Shown piece after piece: positions 42,247 to 51,368 of a DNA stretch of 64,000 nucleotides (position 1 is its first letter; every line of letters begins with the position of its first letter). The notes under the pieces are model-generated. The model searched no databases and was not told where the DNA came from. It saw only the letters and a list, made by a program, of their open reading frames with translations. The translations under genes and the position numbers were made by a program. This DNA comes from Promethearchaeia archaeon (lineage in GTDB: Archaea; Asgardarchaeota; Lokiarchaeia; Sigyniarchaeales; SOKP01): NCBI GenBank assembly GCA_029856125.1, contig JAHQWJ010000141.1, positions 1 to 64,000 on the forward strand, written 5' to 3'.

Positions 42247-42813
42247 ATGATAAAAAATTTTCCTGGTAAATTAGTATTGGTTGTAGGTAATTCAGGCTCA
42301 GGTAAAGATTCAATAATTTCCGGAGTAGTTAAAAGATTTCCATCTAATTTAAAAGAAATTCATCTCACTCAGCGATATATTACAAGACCATCTTCAGAAA
42401 CCGAAGATAATATCTCAATAACTCCAGAAATATTTAAAGAAATGTCTCATCAGAAGAAATTTGCTCTTGAGTGGCACATTTACGATTTGGATTATGGTGT
42501 TCCAATAGACATTGACGATTGGTTAAAAAAAGGACACCCCGTAATTGTAAATGTTAGCCGAACAATTGTGAAAAAAGCCCGATACATTTACCGAAATATT
42601 TTAGTTGTTTTTATCAAAGTGCCTTTTGAAATAACTTTTAAGAGAATAAAGGAACGAGCCCGAGAAAGCGGAAAACTTTTACAAGAAAGAATCCAAAGAG
42701 CAAAGGATAACCAGACTTTTCCCGACGCAGATTTTATCGTTGATAATTCTGGAGAATTGGAAATTGCTATCGATCAATTCCTAAGTTATTTAATCAGAGT
42801 AGTTGAAGCATAG
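42247..42813 (+). CDS. phnN: Ribose 1,5-bisphosphokinase PhnN-like kinase
   Basis: VVGNSGSGKDS, RYITR, FALEW...YG, NVSR, RARES, DNSG. Confidence 0.8.
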   Translation: MIKNFPGKLVLVVGNSGSGKDSIISGVVKRFPSNLKEIHLTQRYITRPSSETEDNISITPEIFKEMSHQKKFALEWHIYDLDYGVPIDIDDWLKKGHPVIVNVSRTIVKKARYIYRNILVVFIKVPFEITFKRIKERARESGKLLQERIQRAKDNQTFPDADFIVDNSGELEIAIDQFLSYLIRVVEA

Positions 42814-42900: not shown

Positions 42901-43005
42901 ATGAAAGAGTTCAAGATCAATGAATTCCTCACCGTGAAATTAATAGATGGTACCCATTTTAAGTTATGTTCCATTTTTTTTCTTGAATCTGTGATTTTCA
43001 AATGA
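42901..43005 (+). pseudogene. Truncated 5' fragment resembling the N-terminus of the expanded Lokiarchaeial LRR-associated protein family
   Basis: MKEFKINEFLTVKLIDG then abrupt loss of similarity and a stop after 34 aa; family recognition is from memory. Confidence 0.45.
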
Positions 43006-43043: not shown

Positions 43044-44630
43044 ATGAAAATAAGTATATTAAACGAAGTATTAGGGCCAATTCTGCATGGACCTAGTAGT
43101 TCTCATACCGCTGCTTCATATAGTATTGGTCGGTTGACCCATATGTTGTGTGAGAACGAAATAAAGGAAATTAATATTACATTTGATTCAAAGGGTTCTT
43201 TTGATAAGACATATAAATCTCAAAATGGAGATGTTGCGTTCTTAGCAGGGATCATTAATTTAGCTGTTGATGATCCTGACTTTCTTAATTCTAAAAATGT
43301 AGCCAGTGAAGAAGGAATTAGATATCTCTTCGATTCAAAAGATATTCCTGAAGCAGATCATCCAAACTATATGTTAATTAATATTCCTGCTAAAAAATTA
43401 ACAATAGTAGCGAAATCCATCGGAGGAGGTATGATTCTGATAGAAAATGTTAATAATTGGAACATTAAAATTAAAGGAAATAATTATAATATCTTAATAG
43501 AATTTCATACGAATTCTAAGGAAAAAATACTGAATTTAATTCAATCATTTTCCAATTCTCCAGAAAAAATACATATACAGGATGATGAGAGGTATTCTTT
43601 TATTCAACTAAAGAATCCAAATAGGTTTAAAGATGAATTTGTTAATAAATTAAAATCTCTTGATTTTATTTCTAATATCTGGACTACTCACCCTATACTT
43701 TTTCCGACTCATGGGACTCCGTTGTTTAAAAATAGCTTTGAGATGTTAAATCTTGCAATTGAAAAAACGTATTCTCTCGGTAAGCTAGGGCTTATGTATG
43801 AATCAGATCTATTGAATATGGATGAAAAATCTATTTTAGAAGAAATGGAAAAAAGGATTTTAGTAATGTTTTCTTCAATTGAAAAGGGTTTGGAAAAGAA
43901 AAATTCGCGTATGAAATTATTAAAGCATTCGGCAAGTAATATCCAAAAAAAAGAACCTCAGCTTTTCAGTTCTGGAATTAATTTAAGAAGCGCTTATAGG
44001 GCTATGGCAGCTATGGATACTGCTTCTTCAGGGGGATTGATTTGTGCGGCCCCTACAGGCGCATCTTGTGGCGTTATTGCTTCTGTTCTTTATACTCTCC
44101 ATTACGATTTTAATATTAACATGAATAAGATTATTAAATGTGCACTTGCAGCAGGTGTGATTGGTTTAATAAACGGAATGAATTCAACTTTTGCTGCTGA
44201 AATAGCGGGATGTCAAGTTGAGATAGGAATGGCTGGAGCAATGGCAGCGGCAGCGGTTATCGAAGTCGCTAATGGAGGTCCTGCTGCAGCCACAGAGGCG
44301 GCAGCAATTGCATTGCAAAACACAATGGGATCTGTATGCGATCTTGTTGCGGGATTCTGTGAAATCCCTTGCCATACTAGGAATGCAGTGGCAGCGTCAA
44401 ATGCATTTATCTGTGCTGATCTTATTATAGGTGGTTATATTAATCCAATAAATCTTGATGATTCAATCCAAGCATCATTTGAAAGTGGTAAGATGTTGCC
44501 TCCTCAATTACGTTGTACTTCATTAGGAGGAATCGCGATCACAGAATCAGCAAAAAAATTGGTTCAAGAAGTTAAAACAGATTATAATAAGATTAATAGA
44601 GCCAATAAGAAAAATACAAACAGAATTTAA
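43044..44630 (+). CDS. sdaA: Fe-S-dependent L-serine dehydratase, fused beta-ACT-alpha
   Basis: GPILHGPSSSHTA, SIGGG, CAAPTGASCG, AGCQVEIG, GSVCDLVAGFCEIPC, LRCTSLGGIA. Confidence 0.9.
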   Translation: MKISILNEVLGPILHGPSSSHTAASYSIGRLTHMLCENEIKEINITFDSKGSFDKTYKSQNGDVAFLAGIINLAVDDPDFLNSKNVASEEGIRYLFDSKDIPEADHPNYMLINIPAKKLTIVAKSIGGGMILIENVNNWNIKIKGNNYNILIEFHTNSKEKILNLIQSFSNSPEKIHIQDDERYSFIQLKNPNRFKDEFVNKLKSLDFISNIWTTHPILFPTHGTPLFKNSFEMLNLAIEKTYSLGKLGLMYESDLLNMDEKSILEEMEKRILVMFSSIEKGLEKKNSRMKLLKHSASNIQKKEPQLFSSGINLRSAYRAMAAMDTASSGGLICAAPTGASCGVIASVLYTLHYDFNINMNKIIKCALAAGVIGLINGMNSTFAAEIAGCQVEIGMAGAMAAAAVIEVANGGPAAATEAAAIALQNTMGSVCDLVAGFCEIPCHTRNAVAASNAFICADLIIGGYINPINLDDSIQASFESGKMLPPQLRCTSLGGIAITESAKKLVQEVKTDYNKINRANKKNTNRI

Positions 44631-44680
44631 AAAATCAAAAAATGTATAATTAAATTAAAAGTTAAGGACCATCTTAATGA
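44562..44680 (+). repeat. 119-bp direct repeat copy A: relic 3' end of an older HNH gene
   Basis: Ungapped match to 46655..46773 with about 14 mismatches by hand count; in frame with sdaA. Confidence 0.92.
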
Positions 44681-44776
44681 TAAAAAAAATTTGTTGAATA
44701 GAATAAGATTTTCGAGATTAAAGAGGTAAATTTTTTTTAATAAGAAAAATTAGATTAGTTACTTCTATTTTACTAA

Positions 44777-44875
44777 GGCCCGGTTCGTATAGACGAGTCT
44801 CGAAATTTTTTCGTGATTCGGTAAAATGGTTAGTATTGGGGACTATACTTAAGTATTCTTCAATCTCAATCTTTA
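44777..44875 (+). pseudogene. Truncated tRNA 5' half with a BHB intron at 15/16 (44793-44826) and a probable degenerate 32/33 intron
   Basis: GGCCCGGTTCGTATAG identical to 46851-46866; after the 34-nt hairpin intron it resumes TGGTTAGTATTGGGGACT. No T-arm or 3' acceptor strand follows. Confidence 0.8.
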
Positions 44876-45031
44876 AGCTGAAGATTAATGAAATTCTCTA
44901 AATTATAAAACTTATTTTTCTCTTAGTTTTTTAATCAAGTGATTTAAATCCTCCTCTTCTTAATTTTATTTTTCCCTTTAAATAGATTGTGTTTATATTG
45001 TTTTTAAAGGATGATAAAAATGTGATCGGTA

Positions 45032-46780
45032 ATGAACTTTAACTCACCCAAGTCGGAACCTAATAAAACATTTAAAAAAGTTGATACTAAGAAAGTTGAA
45101 AAAACCGAAATCGCTTCAAAACCAGGCCAGAAGCTGAGCGACAAACCAAAGAACAAAATAGAACGCCCCAAGATAGATTTACAAAAAGAACCAAGAAATA
45201 AAATTCAACGCGAAAAAATTAGCCTACTAACTCCATCAAAAAATAAGATAGAACGCCCCAAACTCGATCTAAAAACACCATCCAGAAATAAAATACAACA
45301 TCCAAAATATGACACAAAAGCTCCACCGAGACATAAAATTGAACCCCGAAGGATTAATCTTATGAAAGAACCAAAGTATAAAATACAACATCAAGAATTT
45401 AATACTAAAAAGCTTAACACAGATAAAATTCAAGTGAAACCCAGTCATAAAATAAGAAGTGAAGAGATTGGTGATAATTTAATAATTAAATCATTCCCTA
45501 AAAATACTAGAAATATTATTAGTGAAAATATCTATAAAACTTTTGAGGAAAGAAAAGCTACTTCAAATTCTAAAATAGTAGATACACTAATTAAAGATTT
45601 AGGTGATATTAAATCACAACCGAAGTGGATAAATAGATTACCAAAAGATGAATTGAAAGAATTGAGGAATTATATTGTTAATAATAAGATAGATAGTCGA
45701 TTTGAAGGTAGCTTGTCAAATTATTTTGCTGATCTTACTGATTTAGTAGAAGACATAAAAATTTTAAATAATAGAAATCAAGCCGTTAACTTTTCAGAAC
45801 TCAGTCGTAATTTAATCAAGCAAAATAGAGGATTGAATTTAACAAAAAGAGGTTTAGAAGAAGCTATTTCTGGAATTTATAACCATTTTAAGAATGTTTT
45901 TGATGATTTCAAACTTGAACGTGTAAAAAAAAAGTCTATATTAGGGACGGAATCAGAAAAGGAGTCAATACGATGCTTAAGGAAAGAATATAAATTATTA
46001 ATTGAAATGAATGATGGTAGTTATGGGGGAAAATGTTCAAATCCTAGTTGCAACACTGATTTTAAGCGATTACCTGCTTTTGATTTCCATCATGAAGAAA
46101 AAAAAATAAAAACTACTACTTGGAATGAGATCATGCATAAAAAATATGATGAAATAAAAAATACTTTAGAATCTCAAAAAGTAAAACCTATTTGTAAAAA
46201 TTGTCACTTACCTGAAAATGCTAAAATTTTCAATGATTTTAAAGAGACTATCTTGAAGAAAGATTTATTTACCTATTCAAGTCACGATATTGATAAATTT
46301 TTAAATTTAAAAGTAAATAAGTTTGTTAAAGAAAATAATACAAATTATACGGCTGCTTCGCTAAAAATTGAGGTAAAGAGATGGATTAAAAAAAGAGCCG
46401 TAATTGAACAAGTTTTTAATGGAATGTGTATCTCATGTGCAGAAAAACGACTTCCATCTTTACAAATGCACCATACTAATCAAGATCTTAAAGTTCATAG
46501 ATGGGGTGATATTTCTCGTAAATGGAATATTAAAGAATTAATCAATGATTTTGTAATTGAAGAAGAATGCGTTTGCTTATGTGGAAATTGTCACGCTATG
46601 TTAAATACAATAAACTTTGAAAAAAATGTTGGAAAAGTGCTTGGAGAAAAATATGTTCTAGAAGTTAAAGCAGATTATAATAAGATTAAAGGGGCAATCA
46701 TGAAAAATTCAAGCAGAATTAAAAAAATCAAAAAAAGTATAATTAAATTAAATGTTAAGGACCATCTTAATGAAGAATAG
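45032..46780 (+). CDS. Free-standing protein with two HNH-like zinc-finger nuclease modules and N-terminal basic repeats
   Basis: CSNPSC...FDFHH...ICKNCH and CISC...LQMHH...LCGNCH. Confidence 0.8.
   Translation: MNFNSPKSEPNKTFKKVDTKKVEKTEIASKPGQKLSDKPKNKIERPKIDLQKEPRNKIQREKISLLTPSKNKIERPKLDLKTPSRNKIQHPKYDTKAPPRHKIEPRRINLMKEPKYKIQHQEFNTKKLNTDKIQVKPSHKIRSEEIGDNLIIKSFPKNTRNIISENIYKTFEERKATSNSKIVDTLIKDLGDIKSQPKWINRLPKDELKELRNYIVNNKIDSRFEGSLSNYFADLTDLVEDIKILNNRNQAVNFSELSRNLIKQNRGLNLTKRGLEEAISGIYNHFKNVFDDFKLERVKKKSILGTESEKESIRCLRKEYKLLIEMNDGSYGGKCSNPSCNTDFKRLPAFDFHHEEKKIKTTTWNEIMHKKYDEIKNTLESQKVKPICKNCHLPENAKIFNDFKETILKKDLFTYSSHDIDKFLNLKVNKFVKENNTNYTAASLKIEVKRWIKKRAVIEQVFNGMCISCAEKRLPSLQMHHTNQDLKVHRWGDISRKWNIKELINDFVIEEECVCLCGNCHAMLNTINFEKNVGKVLGEKYVLEVKADYNKIKGAIMKNSSRIKKIKKSIIKLNVKDHLNEE
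45149..45418 (+). repeat. Six 45-nt (15-aa) tandem coding repeats
   Basis: KNKIERPKIDLQKEP/RNKIQREKISLLTPS/KNKIERPKLDLKTPS/RNKIQHPKYDTKAPP/RHKIEPRRINLMKEP/KYKIQHQEFNTKKLN. Confidence 0.85.
46655..46773 (+). repeat. 119-bp direct repeat copy B (3' end of the intact HNH gene)
   Basis: Matches 44562..44680. Confidence 0.92.
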
Positions 46781-46850
46781 CATTATTTGTTTTTTTCGAA
46801 CATTCATAAAATTTTTTTAGTGGGTAGTATTATATCATATATACTTCTAT

Positions 46851-47010
46851 GGCCCGGTTCGTATAGTGGTTAGTGGTAAGATTTTAATCTATCCAACTAA
46901 TATTGGGTACAAACTTAGTATTTCTTACTAAATTCTCCTATGTGAATCCCTAGAAGTGTAAGAATATTCTTATGGCTGGGGAAAGGCGAGTTCAATTCTC
47001 GCATCGGGCC
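46851..47010 (+). tRNA. tRNA-His(GUG) with three introns: 46874-46900 (22/23), 46911-46940 (32/33), 46954-46983 (45/46)
   Basis: Spliced 73 nt: G-GCCCGGT-TC-GTAT-AGTGGTTA-GTAT-T-GGGTA-CT-GTG-AA-TCCCT-AGAG-GCGAG-TTCAATT-CTCGC-ATCGGGC-C. G-1:C73 His identity pair; each junction folds as a bulge-helix-bulge. Confidence 0.87.
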
Positions 47011-47133
47011 CTCTTATATTTCATAAGTTCAATTTGTATGCCTTAGGGCGCCTTATTTTACAATATAAACAATAAATTAATATCTTTTAGTGAATTTTAC
47101 TCTGCAATTAAAAATAGATTATAGGCTTAGACT

Positions 47134-47586
47134 ATGGTTGATTTAGATCCAGAGAAACTTAGAAACATACCAGGATGGGAAAATGCTCCAATTCATATAT
47201 GTATGGGTGCTGATTGTCGAGGTCTAACTTTTTGTTGTAAACCAGGGTATTCTCTTACTTTTGGTTTTAAATGTAGTCGGGATGAAGCTTTAAACGATTT
47301 AGAACTAAGTCCAGAAGATTTTATTAAAATTAAAGAAGATTTTTCGAGAGCAAACGATTGGGACTCCGATCTCGTATGTTTTGGATCAATTTCGTATTGT
47401 TGCATGAGGAAAGGAGGATGTTCAAGGAGAGATCCTGCGCTACAAATGAGATACCCAGATAAAACCAGAGAAGAATTTATGAAAATATATTACGAAAAAA
47501 AGAAAGAGTTAGCTCAGATAATCTTAGAATTCGTAAACAACAACGGAAATAAAGAAAAAGTTGAGCCGTATTTAGATTTATTCTAA
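47134..47586 (+). CDS. Methanogenesis marker 9-like cysteine-rich domain protein
   Basis: WENAPIHICMGADCRGLTFCCKP, CFGSISYCC...CSRRD. Confidence 0.75.
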   Translation: MVDLDPEKLRNIPGWENAPIHICMGADCRGLTFCCKPGYSLTFGFKCSRDEALNDLELSPEDFIKIKEDFSRANDWDSDLVCFGSISYCCMRKGGCSRRDPALQMRYPDKTREEFMKIYYEKKKELAQIILEFVNNNGNKEKVEPYLDLF

Positions 47587-49187: not shown

Positions 49188-51368
49188 TTATTTTGGTCCT
49201 GGTTTTGAGAGTCTTTTTCTAAATTCTTGAATCATACCTTCCCATATAACCCTAGCCGTTTCACTATGCTCTTCCCATTCAATTAGAATTTCTTTATTTT
49301 TATCTTTCTCTATAATTTGAAATGTTGCTTTATAAGAGGAACCAGATGATATACTCAATAAATTCGGCTCTAATTCATCACAAATGGTTTCAATTCTTTG
49401 CCAATTGAAATGATCTCTAAATCCATTAAAGAAGTTTTCGACAAAAATTTTGATATAATTCTTTATATAAATAGTCTTCCATCTTTTAGGGTGGCAAATT
49501 ATAACATCTTTTATTTTTCTAATTTCTTGGTATGATTCTGTTTCACTTTCCATACCCTGTTTTACCGATTCTTGCTCACTATTCTTTCTGATGTATTTTA
49601 AAATTATATCTTTAGATTTTACATCTCCTATCTGTTCGGCTATTCTAAGTGCCTCATTGAATAGTTTTATGGCTTCTTGATAGTTTCCCTGAGATTGCCT
49701 TATTGTACCGATATTATGAAGACATAATAAATTCAAACTCTTATCTCCCAATTGTTCAGATATCTTTAGTGCTTCTTCATGTCGTTTCAAGGCTTCTGAA
49801 TAATTTCTTTGATTAGCATAAACTAGTCCACTATTGTTTAATATACTACTTTTAAAGCGTATATTACCTAATTGATCAGCAATCTTTAGCGCTTCTTCGT
49901 AATATTTCAAAGACTCAGAAAAACGCTCCTGTATTCGGTATATTGATCCAACATTATTAAGGTTTATTGCAGTTCCATTTAGGTTCCCATATTGTCTATG
50001 AATCTTAGCTGCTTCCTTATAAAGATTTATAGCTCCGGGGTAATCGTTTTTACTTACATAAACATCACCCATATTATTATAAATACTAGATATTAGTTTT
50101 AAACCTACGTCCCCTCCTAAATCTACAGCAATCTTTTTTGCCTCTTCAAATTTTTTTAAAGCATCTGTATATTTTCTTTGTTTATTAAAAATTTGTCCAG
50201 TATTATTGAGGATGATTGCTTTCCACATAGTATCTCCTGTATCATCAGCAACTTGCTTAAGCTTTTTGAGACACCTCAATGCATTATCATACATATCTTT
50301 ATCGATATAAATTTTATAGGGTATCTGATATTTTATTATGTCATTTACTTCCGGATAGATGCTATTAAGATAATCTTTAGGTTGTAAGGAAAAATTTTCT
50401 GAACTTAAGTCCGGTTTAGAATCTATTAATCCTTCTGCCATTTTCTTTGTATTTACATTTAAAAGGTATACATGATCCGCATTTTTCATTTGCCAAATTT
50501 CAAAAAGTATCTGAACAACTTTTCTTAAATTCAGGTCCAAATTGTTTAATGATTGAGGTGTGTGGTCATCAATCTCAAATATTTGCTCTTTTCCTATTTC
50601 AATGTCGTGCGAATAATTTATCCAAATCACATTTTGTATTTGTTTTAAAATTTTTAAGGTAGGTACAATATCAAAATCGTCGCTTCCAGAATAACCTATA
50701 ATAGCTAATGACCGTTCTTTTGTGATGTTCTCAAATAAAGGTTGTTTAAATGATTCTAGCTGAAATACATTTTCTCCTTCTTTGTTTGACCCGAATGCTT
50801 GAATTGTAGCAATTAACGAATCTTTTGTGTCTTTTTGTGTAATTATATTCTTAGGCGAGCCATGTACTTTATAAACAGTTTTTTTTCCTTGATTTAATTG
50901 TTCATATGGGTCAGCAAATACTTCAAAATCCTCTTTGGTTATTACTGGAATAATTTCCTCAATAGGAACTCCTGATTGATTTAATGCATATTCAATCAAA
51001 TGATCAAAATTAGTAGTCATCACAAAATGCCCTTTTTTTATCATTTCAGCTAAGAAAAAATGCTGGATATTTGGTTTATCGCATATACCGTAGTAATCAA
51101 TAAGCACAAGTTTTTCATCTAATGAGTCTCGAAAAATCTCAACTAGGGTTTCAAATCGCACTTCTCCCAATTTTATTAGCTCTAAAATACCTTCACTCTC
51201 TGATTTATCACATGCATGGTCAATAATGGCTTCCATCATCGCATAACCTGCGGGAAGGCAAGAGGGGCTATTAATAGAACATCCAGCACCTACTAGAAAA
51301 GTGAACTTCCCATTAGTATTAAAAATATCAGTTATCTTAAGATTTGTTAGCTCCATACTAATTCTCAA
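49188..51368 (-). CDS. SIR2-like (NADase-type) domain + TPR array + unknown C-terminal domain
   Basis: FLVGAGCS, MTTNFD, YKVHGS, IGYSGSDDFD; about six repeats of the LNNxG..Y..Q..Y.EAL..YEEALKI...LG type. Confidence 0.9.
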   Translation of the reverse strand: MRISMELTNLKITDIFNTNGKFTFLVGAGCSINSPSCLPAGYAMMEAIIDHACDKSESEGILELIKLGEVRFETLVEIFRDSLDEKLVLIDYYGICDKPNIQHFFLAEMIKKGHFVMTTNFDHLIEYALNQSGVPIEEIIPVITKEDFEVFADPYEQLNQGKKTVYKVHGSPKNIITQKDTKDSLIATIQAFGSNKEGENVFQLESFKQPLFENITKERSLAIIGYSGSDDFDIVPTLKILKQIQNVIWINYSHDIEIGKEQIFEIDDHTPQSLNNLDLNLRKVVQILFEIWQMKNADHVYLLNVNTKKMAEGLIDSKPDLSSENFSLQPKDYLNSIYPEVNDIIKYQIPYKIYIDKDMYDNALRCLKKLKQVADDTGDTMWKAIILNNTGQIFNKQRKYTDALKKFEEAKKIAVDLGGDVGLKLISSIYNNMGDVYVSKNDYPGAINLYKEAAKIHRQYGNLNGTAINLNNVGSIYRIQERFSESLKYYEEALKIADQLGNIRFKSSILNNSGLVYANQRNYSEALKRHEEALKISEQLGDKSLNLLCLHNIGTIRQSQGNYQEAIKLFNEALRIAEQIGDVKSKDIILKYIRKNSEQESVKQGMESETESYQEIRKIKDVIICHPKRWKTIYIKNYIKIFVENFFNGFRDHFNWQRIETICDELEPNLLSISSGSSYKATFQIIEKDKNKEILIEWEEHSETARVIWEGMIQEFRKRLSKPGPK

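Follow-up and report, generated by a model that had tools for sequence, protein, structure and literature searches.

A double-HNH nuclease gene and an intron-bearing tRNA-His copy in Lokiarchaeia: a candidate case of collaborative homing with archaeal tRNA introns

Introduction

In contig JAHQWJ010000141.1 of a Promethearchaeia archaeon (assembly GCA_029856125.1), the 3′ end of an HNH nuclease gene, a spacer and the start of a tRNA gene occur twice, about 2.1 kb apart. The window, the whole stretch of DNA that was analysed, comprises the first 64,000 nucleotides of this contig. How did this arrangement arise, and does the nuclease have a part in the intron content of the tRNA? That introns could shield tRNA genes is an idea of Randau and Soll, as the article PMC3293823 cites them. 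In Caldiarchaeum a tRNA-Thr(GGU) locus of similar layout, found within one population, was proposed to represent intron gain via a mobile element (PMC3293823). Our literature search found no report of Lokiarchaeia HNH proteins with tRNA introns, or of HNH homing endonucleases adjoining archaeal tRNAs.

Results

Organisation of the locus

The features of the locus, in window coordinates, are the following.

42247..42813, + strand: phnN/guanylate-kinase-like host gene (Pfam PF00625), the flank in most relatives
43044..44630, + strand: L-serine dehydratase cargo gene (PF03313, 5.7e-50)
44554..44680, + strand: 3′ remnant of an earlier HNH gene (89% identity to 46647-46773; profile match E 1.3e-9)
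44681..44776, + strand: spacer and putative promoter of the resident tRNA-His, resembling the region upstream of empty allele L063
44777..44844, + strand: orphan 5′ part of the resident tRNA-His, G-1 to U33 (in run contigs of the empty allele, 44844 leads into the tRNA 3′ half)
44793..44826, + strand: bulge-helix-bulge (BHB) intron 15/16 of the orphan, 34 nt (BHB check; same position in intact alleles L046, L053 and L063)
44845..45031, + strand: incoming leader, a decayed ORF end and conserved HNH upstream region, homologous to the leaders of L042, L031, L033 and L188
45032..46780, + strand: 582-aa double-HNH endonuclease-like gene (PHROG HNH families, E 1e-11, two stretches)
45992..46252, + strand: zinc-HNH domain 1 (CxxxxC..FHH..CKNCH)
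46382..46630, + strand: zinc-HNH domain 2 (CxxC..MHH..CGNCH; AlphaFold pLDDT 95)
46781..46850, + strand: donor spacer and putative promoter of the incoming tRNA, near-identical in L031, L032 and L050
46851..47010, + strand: complete incoming tRNA-His(GUG) gene, G-1 to C73
46874..46900, + strand: BHB intron 22/23 of the incoming tRNA-His, 27 nt
46911..46940, + strand: BHB intron 32/33 of the incoming tRNA-His, 30 nt
46954..46983, + strand: BHB intron 45/46 of the incoming tRNA-His, 30 nt, candidate shield
47134..47586, + strand: conserved 150-aa host gene, the right flank, present in 118/135 genomes of the Lokiarchaeia family

The two HNH 3′ ends (44554-44680 and 46647-46773) match over 128 nt with 89% identity (E 2e-39) at a spacing of 2093. 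The tRNA start GGCCCGGTTCGTATAG lies at 44777 and 46851, and TACTTCTAT at 44760 and 46842. The repeated unit was found as originally described, except that the spacers, given there as 80-100 nt, measure 96 nt upstream and only 70 nt downstream. The remnant at 44554..44680 is the scar of a former invasion; the last ~25 codons of the serine dehydratase ORF are an in-frame piece of this older HNH gene, and the same fusion is seen in L033 and L050. In empty alleles the phnN-like gene lies ~50-170 nt 5′ of tRNA-His.

ARAGORN and Rfam did not detect the tRNA in the unspliced window, and it was decoded by comparison with intron-less relatives. After splicing in silico, the downstream copy, the sole tRNA-His found in the genome, was called as His by ARAGORN. 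The predicted introns fit the BHB pattern of a 4-bp helix with two 3-nt bulges, and removal of the three downstream ones in silico yields a canonical tRNA. Helix pairing is 4/4 for introns 22/23 and 45/46 and 3/4 for 15/16; for 32/33 it is 3/4 in the window and 4/4 with G30, position 30 (46908) being T in the window and G in other assemblies. The two copies had been described as differing in introns 15/16 and 22/23. Both are present, but the downstream copy carries 32/33 and 45/46 too. The upstream copy lacks its 3′ half, as had been noted: it ends after U33 at 44844, the break being U33|G34, and the left junction (44844|44845) is without homology to the tRNA.

The junction recurs in other assemblies and has an empty counterpart

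The left junction is letter-identical in ENA contig L187, the same junction is present in JGI contig L179, and a contig of run X3 bridges 44726-46284. Because the junction is thus found in two other assemblies and one run contig, the locus is no assembly chimera. An artificial joining of two strains, named with the original prediction as what would overturn it, is hardly credible: several strains do coexist in the samples and the right flanks of the window and L187 are unlike, but the left junction recurs as described and analogous structures occur in other lineages.

Empty-site alleles were also found. In runs X1, X2 and X7, position 44844 is joined to the tRNA 3′ half; this allele has 15/16 as its sole intron and is without 32/33 and 45/46. 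Filled and empty alleles coexist in samples, and their mature tRNA-His is identical except for the private T30 of the window. The original proposal was that the element carries a replacement for the 5′ part of the tRNA. Instead, as judged from these comparisons, the cassette replaces the whole gene and not the 5′ part alone, because 45/46, missing from the empty allele, came along and both acceptor strands in L042 are of donor type.

The window protein belongs to a family with two zinc-HNH modules

Against PHROG the window protein matched phrog_3106 (E 1.1e-11) and phrog_2255 (E 2.1e-9), each over two stretches. Pfam gave no HNH match on the whole window protein; across the double-HNH family, HNH PF01844 was matched in 41/125 domains. 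The catalytic and metal motifs are HH (131/136 domains) and CxNCH (127/136), while conservation does not extend to the middle Asn of the HNH motif. The family domain aligns to the active site of EcoKMcrA. In the structure model (pLDDT 95) two strands are followed by a helix. The best matches in the fold search were HNH/Endo VII proteins, and these were weak (Z <=4.3, rmsd 3.6, 67 aligned; Foldseek E > 0.5); a first, weak model (14 sequences, pLDDT 66) gave no significant fold matches. Basic 15-aa repeats are encoded at 45147-45433. Designed PPR proteins, which came up as sequence relatives in the PDB, were rejected as repeat artefacts. The CxxC..HH..CxNCH module is common to the family and to McrA/Endo VII-like zinc-HNH nucleases (EcoKMcrA, 6ghc; T4 Endo VII; phrog_3106, phrog_2255), from which the family differs in having two tandem modules with a variable N-terminal region and in being confined, among the genomes searched, to one Lokiarchaeia family. 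No member was found in 232 genomes of 29 other families, nor any relative in viral contigs searched with the family alignment.

The nuclease gene is optional, mobile and linked to tRNA genes

The double-HNH gene occupies the His site in 5 of ~90 scored genomes of the Lokiarchaeia family, a patchy distribution. It is an optional gene between conserved genes and has empty alleles, as is characteristic of free-standing homing endonucleases. Its dS to all partners is 0.23-0.48 while that of the flank ranges from 0.1 to >2; for a partner from another genus the values are 0.33 and 2.3-2.6. Together with a dN/dS of 0.18-0.31, these estimates indicate a gene under purifying selection that moves between genera. 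In L032/L033 phnN has been swapped. The dS discordance, the swapped phnN and the locus-specific clades show that the gene spreads laterally into a fixed locus and that flanking DNA is co-converted.

Homologs of 45032..46780 are linked to tRNAs, as anticipated: 40/70 family loci adjoin a tRNA gene, against ~2-3% expected, and at ~40% no adjoining tRNA was found. The family tree, a quick version read for its well-supported shallow clades alone, has one clade per tRNA locus, across genera.

Displaced tRNA pieces had been expected to be left by successive invasions. Orphans do occur at several loci, but they are occasional, most nuclease alleles having none, and when the nuclease gene is on the 3′ side of the tRNA the orphan is a 3′ piece. 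Such mirror-image pieces were found for Arg, Gln, Asn, Val and Pro tRNAs, and they start at or 3′ of the donor intron, where present. The His orphans break after different positions (~33 in the window, ~24 in L042, ~6 in L033), and the L033 joint contains ~40 nt of the donor phnN end. The three are independent events, and the His site has been invaded more than once. Scars with the intron retained are seen in L050, L158, L191 and L192. In one bin (G060) an empty Gln allele without an intron was found, and its flank is a close match to the flank on the orphan side of the filled allele.

Intron 45/46 accompanies the nuclease

Intron state was found to track nuclease presence. Intron 45/46 is present in 14/15 nuclease-bearing His alleles and in 43/83 others (52%; p 0.002); the exception, L004, has an intron near 38/39 instead. 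The T-loop intron of Gln-CUG is present in 5/5 nuclease alleles and 8/29 others (p 0.005), and the Pro-GGG intron at the D-stem/anticodon-stem junction in 6/6 and 60/98 (p 0.06). Since the alleles are related, these p-values overstate the association; within the window's genus alone the 45/46 background is 19/29 (p 0.02-0.06), and in species-representative genomes alone 45/46 is present in 4/5, which is not significant. For Asn, a pattern search that was too narrow gave an intron in 15 of 16 matches. The other introns of nuclease-bearing His alleles are less constant: 22/23 in 5/15, 32/33 in 7/15 and 15/16 in 1/15. The contrast between 15/16 and 22/23, to which resistance had been ascribed, is thus replaced by 45/46, the sole near-universal intron, as the candidate shield.

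Discussion

On balance we consider it probable that the 582-aa protein is a free-standing homing endonuclease engaged in collaborative homing with tRNA introns, its cleavage activity being predicted. Each HNH module would probably nick one strand, and the target would be a tRNA-His gene with an uninterrupted anticodon-arm/variable-loop stretch. Intron and nuclease would travel together because the donor 45/46 BHB intron interrupts this target. The break would be repaired from the donor allele; on its right side, homologous recombination would take place within the tRNA 3′ end or past it. On the left, homology in phnN may give the clean swap that is observed; where the left flank differs, an illegitimate joint may form, and the recipient 5′ tRNA part is found stranded. 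The nuclease could later be lost, or cargo such as serine dehydratase could overwrite it, with the intron staying or being lost, and an intron-less allele would be open to re-invasion, the window being such a case.

The introns might instead be mere hitchhikers of a homing endonuclease, carried by co-conversion, with immunity due to polymorphic exons or flanks or to the site being split by the insertion. The common ancestry of the cassette alleles would allow this, as would the presence of 45/46 in about half of the empty His alleles and the intron-less Arg neighbours of intact family members (4/9 Arg-CCU and the Arg-UCG one). Yet among nuclease alleles 45/46 persists, even with its own sequence down to 15/30 identity, against a turnover of the remaining introns and of the tRNA body (three T-stem types). 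In the matched His and Gln pairs the displaced allele is without the intron borne by the nuclease allele, and for His the near-identity of the mature sequences leaves little exon polymorphism. We regard hitchhiking as rather unlikely. That the nuclease serves defence or as a toxin and accumulates at tRNA hotspots, the duplications being by-products of strain recombination, is very improbable: the McrA-type HNH similarity (E 0.011) and the other cargo taken up by the site fit this, but the single clade per locus across genera, the recurrent orphans and the intron link do not, and the window protein has neither a partner gene nor a PADLOC match.

The orphan and the tRNA could also be attL and attR of an island that an integrase created and of which a single passenger gene is left, on the Caldiarchaeum model. 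The anticodon loop, where the break U33|G34 lies, is a usual crossover region for tRNA-targeting integrases, and several loci have the gene between direct repeats of tRNA ends. One crossover at 33/34, though, would keep the host 3′ half without 45/46, whereas the intact copy has it. The break points vary between events, the phnN sequence from the donor at the L033 joint suggests that this donor was chromosomal, and the absence of an integrase noted at the outset was borne out, the neighbours being genes of other kinds and the genome's sole PF00589 match being on another contig (C132). The same layout has been so interpreted in PMC3293823; for our locus this reading is improbable. It is extremely improbable that splicing, in trans or by removal of a 2.1-kb intron encoding the HNH protein, unites the 5′ part of the upstream copy with the 3′ half of the downstream one. 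The two copies do allow a central BHB helix to be drawn, and in the window the anticodon stem of the downstream copy is weakened by T30. But with G30, as in L179 and L187, the downstream gene needs no partner to be intact; orphans are absent from most nuclease alleles, and the intron-side helix of the long form is unpaired. Split or trans-spliced tRNAs need both halves, with complementary leaders, whereas here an intact gene is present.

Several known systems resemble the homing arrangement proposed here. In collaborative homing by F-CphI and the psbA group I intron of cyanophage S-PM2, and in T3-like phages (PMC6083498, PMC10055350), an optional free-standing nuclease gene likewise lies beside an essential gene, the nuclease allele bears the intron that the susceptible allele lacks, and both move jointly. 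The present case differs in its host, a cellular Asgard archaeon; in its target, a tRNA gene; in its intron, a BHB intron of 30 nt that is spliced by proteins; and in its enzyme, a tandem double-HNH protein with predicted cleavage. In the intronless homing of T4 Seg/Mob enzymes, SegB is a free-standing nuclease in the T4 tRNA cluster, with flank co-conversion (PMC2988022; PMC2330249 as cited there). Unlike the window HNH protein, SegB is a GIY-YIG enzyme listed in PMC2988022 as cutting a phage tRNA intergenic region, and its account there describes no BHB intron and no orphan halves. Integrative elements that target tRNA genes with SSV- and pNOB8-type integrases also repeat a tRNA fragment at the far insertion end; the window locus differs in its variable breaks, its exchange of the whole tRNA and its want of an integrase. 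Closest in layout is the Caldiarchaeum subterraneum tRNA-Thr(GGU) insertion (Sugahara et al. 2012, PMC3293823): a 5′ tRNA fragment, ~1.9 kb with one ORF, and an intact tRNA with an extra intron. That was one case, its ORF a "putative recombinase" by SVMProt alone and read as site-specific integration, with no nuclease family and no multi-locus pattern.

These results suggest that a mobile nuclease bringing its own intron-bearing tRNA copy is one way in which tRNA introns spread. The cassette, predicted as a vehicle for intron gain, would spread existing introns; it would explain their spread and not the origin of new ones. More broadly, and with somewhat less than even confidence, the double-HNH family may target many tRNA genes, each clade at one BHB intron position, and a nuclease-tRNA arms race may drive how non-canonical tRNA introns spread, are retained and turn over. 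Since the enzyme is named and its target predicted, empty and filled alleles can be matched within the same samples, and other tRNAs offer parallel cases, the shield idea becomes testable with one cleavage assay. The family could yield single-chain nucleases specific for tRNA genes. If true, the homing explanation would mean that collaborative homing reaches beyond phage group I introns to the BHB introns of a cellular genome, and the arms race, if it exists, would be the first mechanism to drive archaeal tRNA introns at the DNA level.

Organization of the tRNA-His locus

The window, from a 3.69 Mb genome that is 99% complete, carries these features:

42247..42813, phnN, left host flank
43044..44630, serine dehydratase ORF, cargo
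45032..46780 (+), 582-aa double-HNH gene
46851..47010 (+), complete tRNA-His
47134..47586, 150-aa gene, right flank

As originally noted, the HNH 3′ end and a tRNA start occur twice: the HNH 3′ end forms a 128-nt repeat (89% identity, spacing 2093), and the tRNA starts lie at 44777 and 46851. The downstream copy, decoded against intron-less relatives, is a tRNA-His(GUG) that runs from G-1 to C73 and is interrupted by BHB introns at 22/23, 32/33 and 45/46. ARAGORN identifies the in silico spliced product as His, and pairing is seen in the BHB helices. The upstream copy has one 15/16 intron and terminates at U33. The originally noted difference in introns (15/16 versus 22/23) is thus real but incomplete, as the downstream copy also has those at 32/33 and 45/46. 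The serine dehydratase ORF ends in-frame within the upstream HNH remnant. Position 30 of the tRNA (46908) is T in the window and G in two further assemblies that carry this allele (L179 and L187); T30 is therefore a private variant or error. It would disrupt an anticodon-stem pair.

Several other observations were made. Between phnN and the dehydratase (42901-42950) lies a short remnant, MKEFKINEFLTVKL, which resembles the beginning of a leucine-rich-repeat family that is expanded in Lokiarchaeia; it possibly belongs to the cargo event. The leader of the incoming DNA (44845-44900; also at loci L042 and L188) contains a decayed ORF end that looks intact in L042 (..FEQEIDEILSKIENL..). A possible NAD-depleting defence protein is encoded at 49188-51368 on the minus strand (726 aa); a SIR2-like domain occurs in it together with TPR repeats. 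In the whole genome ARAGORN called 17 tRNA genes and an intron-tolerant scan made 40 calls; multiple introns thus conceal most of its tRNAs.

Empty and filled alleles

The empty allele is present in sequencing runs X1, X2 and X7; in it the upstream copy passes at 44844 directly into the tRNA 3′ half; this places the insertion point at U33|G34. Contig depth, which is distinct from the share of cells, was about 12-20 for the empty form, compared with about 5 across the HNH gene. The 32/33 and 45/46 introns are both missing from the empty allele. The incoming DNA therefore supplied an entire tRNA gene, three introns included; a replacement tRNA was correctly predicted, its restriction to a 5′ part was not.

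An assembly chimera of two strains is opposed by recurrence of the filled junction in two independent assemblies, L179 and L187, and by one contig of run X3 that spans 44726-46284. L187 shares the cassette and left junction with the window and differs in the right flank (47034-47150); either the cassette moved on from one strain to another, or one of the assemblies switches strains.

Scars of past invasions

Breaks lie inside the tRNA. Displaced 5′ pieces, as predicted, mark three independent tRNA-His events, with ends near positions 33, 24 and 6. The prediction did not extend to genes located 3′ of their tRNA, where the orphan is a 3′ piece.

Orphan 3′ pieces of displaced tRNA genes
Arg, 16 nt
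Gln, from position 61
Asn, from position 64
Val, from about position 43
Pro, from about position 35

At L033 some 40 nt from the end of a donor phnN remain at the joint, pointing to a donor that was chromosomal and whose left-hand joining was illegitimate. In genome G087 a dehydratase fusion is followed by donor-type spacer and tRNA without HNH, which would fit its loss between the 128-nt repeats. Short HNH ends are retained beside intron-bearing tRNAs at L158, L191 and L192.

Association with introns

The 45/46 intron was present in 14 of 15 distinct nuclease-bearing His alleles (the remaining one has an intron near 38/39), against 43/83 alleles without the gene (p 0.002) and a within-genus background of 19/29 (p 0.02-0.06); the alleles are related and not independent, and these p-values are therefore upper bounds on the evidence. 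Other introns in the same 15 alleles were less regular (32/33 in 7, 22/23 in 5, 15/16 in 1). The Gln-CUG T-loop intron occurred in 5/5 nuclease alleles versus 8/29 others, and the Pro-GGG intron at 26-28 in 6/6 versus 60/98, a seventh nuclease allele also having this intron. Bin G060 includes an intron-less Gln allele, and its flank is a close match to the one located behind the orphan in the corresponding filled allele. More weight attaches to such matched pairs, and to the fact that every other intron turns over, than to the p-values. Against generality, introns are lacking in 4/9 Arg-CCU neighbours and in the Arg-UCG neighbour.

The double-HNH protein

The protein has two CxxC..HH..CxNCH modules, preceded by an N-terminal region that is variable and contains basic repeats. 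PHROG HNH families match it (E 1e-11), Pfam HNH matches 41/125 family domains, the family profile can be aligned with the active site of EcoKMcrA, and a confident single-domain model ranks HNH and Endo VII structures top, at a Z of only about 4. These matches make nuclease activity likely. By analogy with HNH biochemistry, the two modules may produce a double-strand break. Locus L015 (G063:C29), beside tRNA-Asn, has a single ORF with two double-HNH units (four modules). At L023, L028, L088 and L107-type loci several members are fragments or have internal stops, as would be expected if homing endonuclease genes were decaying.

Distribution and lateral movement

The HNH gene is patchy, laterally mobile and under purifying selection (dN/dS 0.18-0.31). 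Its close homologs all lie immediately 5′ of tRNA-His, which is almost always followed by the 150-aa gene, and phnN mostly precedes them; most relatives have the empty site. HNH core dS to seven partners was 0.23-0.48 irrespective of host distance: 0.33 for a partner from another genus (flanks 2.3-2.6) and 0.44 for a close relative (flanks 0.10-0.14). At L032 and L033, phnN dS was about 1.6 versus 0.1-0.2 for the remaining flanking genes, suggesting that phnN was exchanged together with the cassette, in line with co-conversion. The phnN to tRNA-His site is a gene-exchange hotspot; the interval holds other cargo genes in L067, L131, L132, L154, L158 and L163.

The wider family was found in 57/135 genomes of this Lokiarchaeia family and in none of 232 genomes searched from 29 others; 194 representatives fell below 1e-10 in a large library. 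Linkage to tRNA genes holds, with 40/70 family loci adjoining one (His, Arg-UCG, Arg-CCU, Gln-CUG, Gln-UUG, Asn, Glu, Val, Leu or Pro-GGG) where roughly 2-3% is expected from the 40 tRNA-like calls in the genome. Well-supported clades are each confined to one locus; other clades sit at conserved protein genes (L018, L027, L084, L086; L030, L099; L007, L008, L013). By eye, candidate neighbours of the latter are dihydrolipoamide-dehydrogenase-like, UvrA-like and deacetylase-like genes, and at L030 the UvrA-like gene seems to have left a 3′ piece stranded upstream.

Mechanism and relation to known systems

The element probably encodes a homing nuclease. It would cleave the intron-less tRNA gene; the break would be repaired by homologous recombination, two-sided or one-sided; the incoming intron would protect the gene from cleavage; and the nuclease would subsequently be lost, followed by re-invasion. 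This full model, with intron shielding, is favoured somewhat less firmly.

The cassette is real. By genomic criteria it would belong to collaborative homing, in the same mode as F-CphI with a phage group I intron (PMC6083498, PMC10055350), and would work like T4 SegB at tRNA genes (PMC2988022). The same layout, seen once in Caldiarchaeum, was interpreted as integration by a putative recombinase (PMC3293823). Our literature searches found no description of this double-HNH family. A 2026 preprint on Asgard tRNA introns found no general route for their arrival; homing and HNH go unmentioned in it. The present finding concerns one archaeal family and would explain the spread of introns rather than their origin. 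It makes the question of how Asgard tRNA introns arrive testable with one assay.
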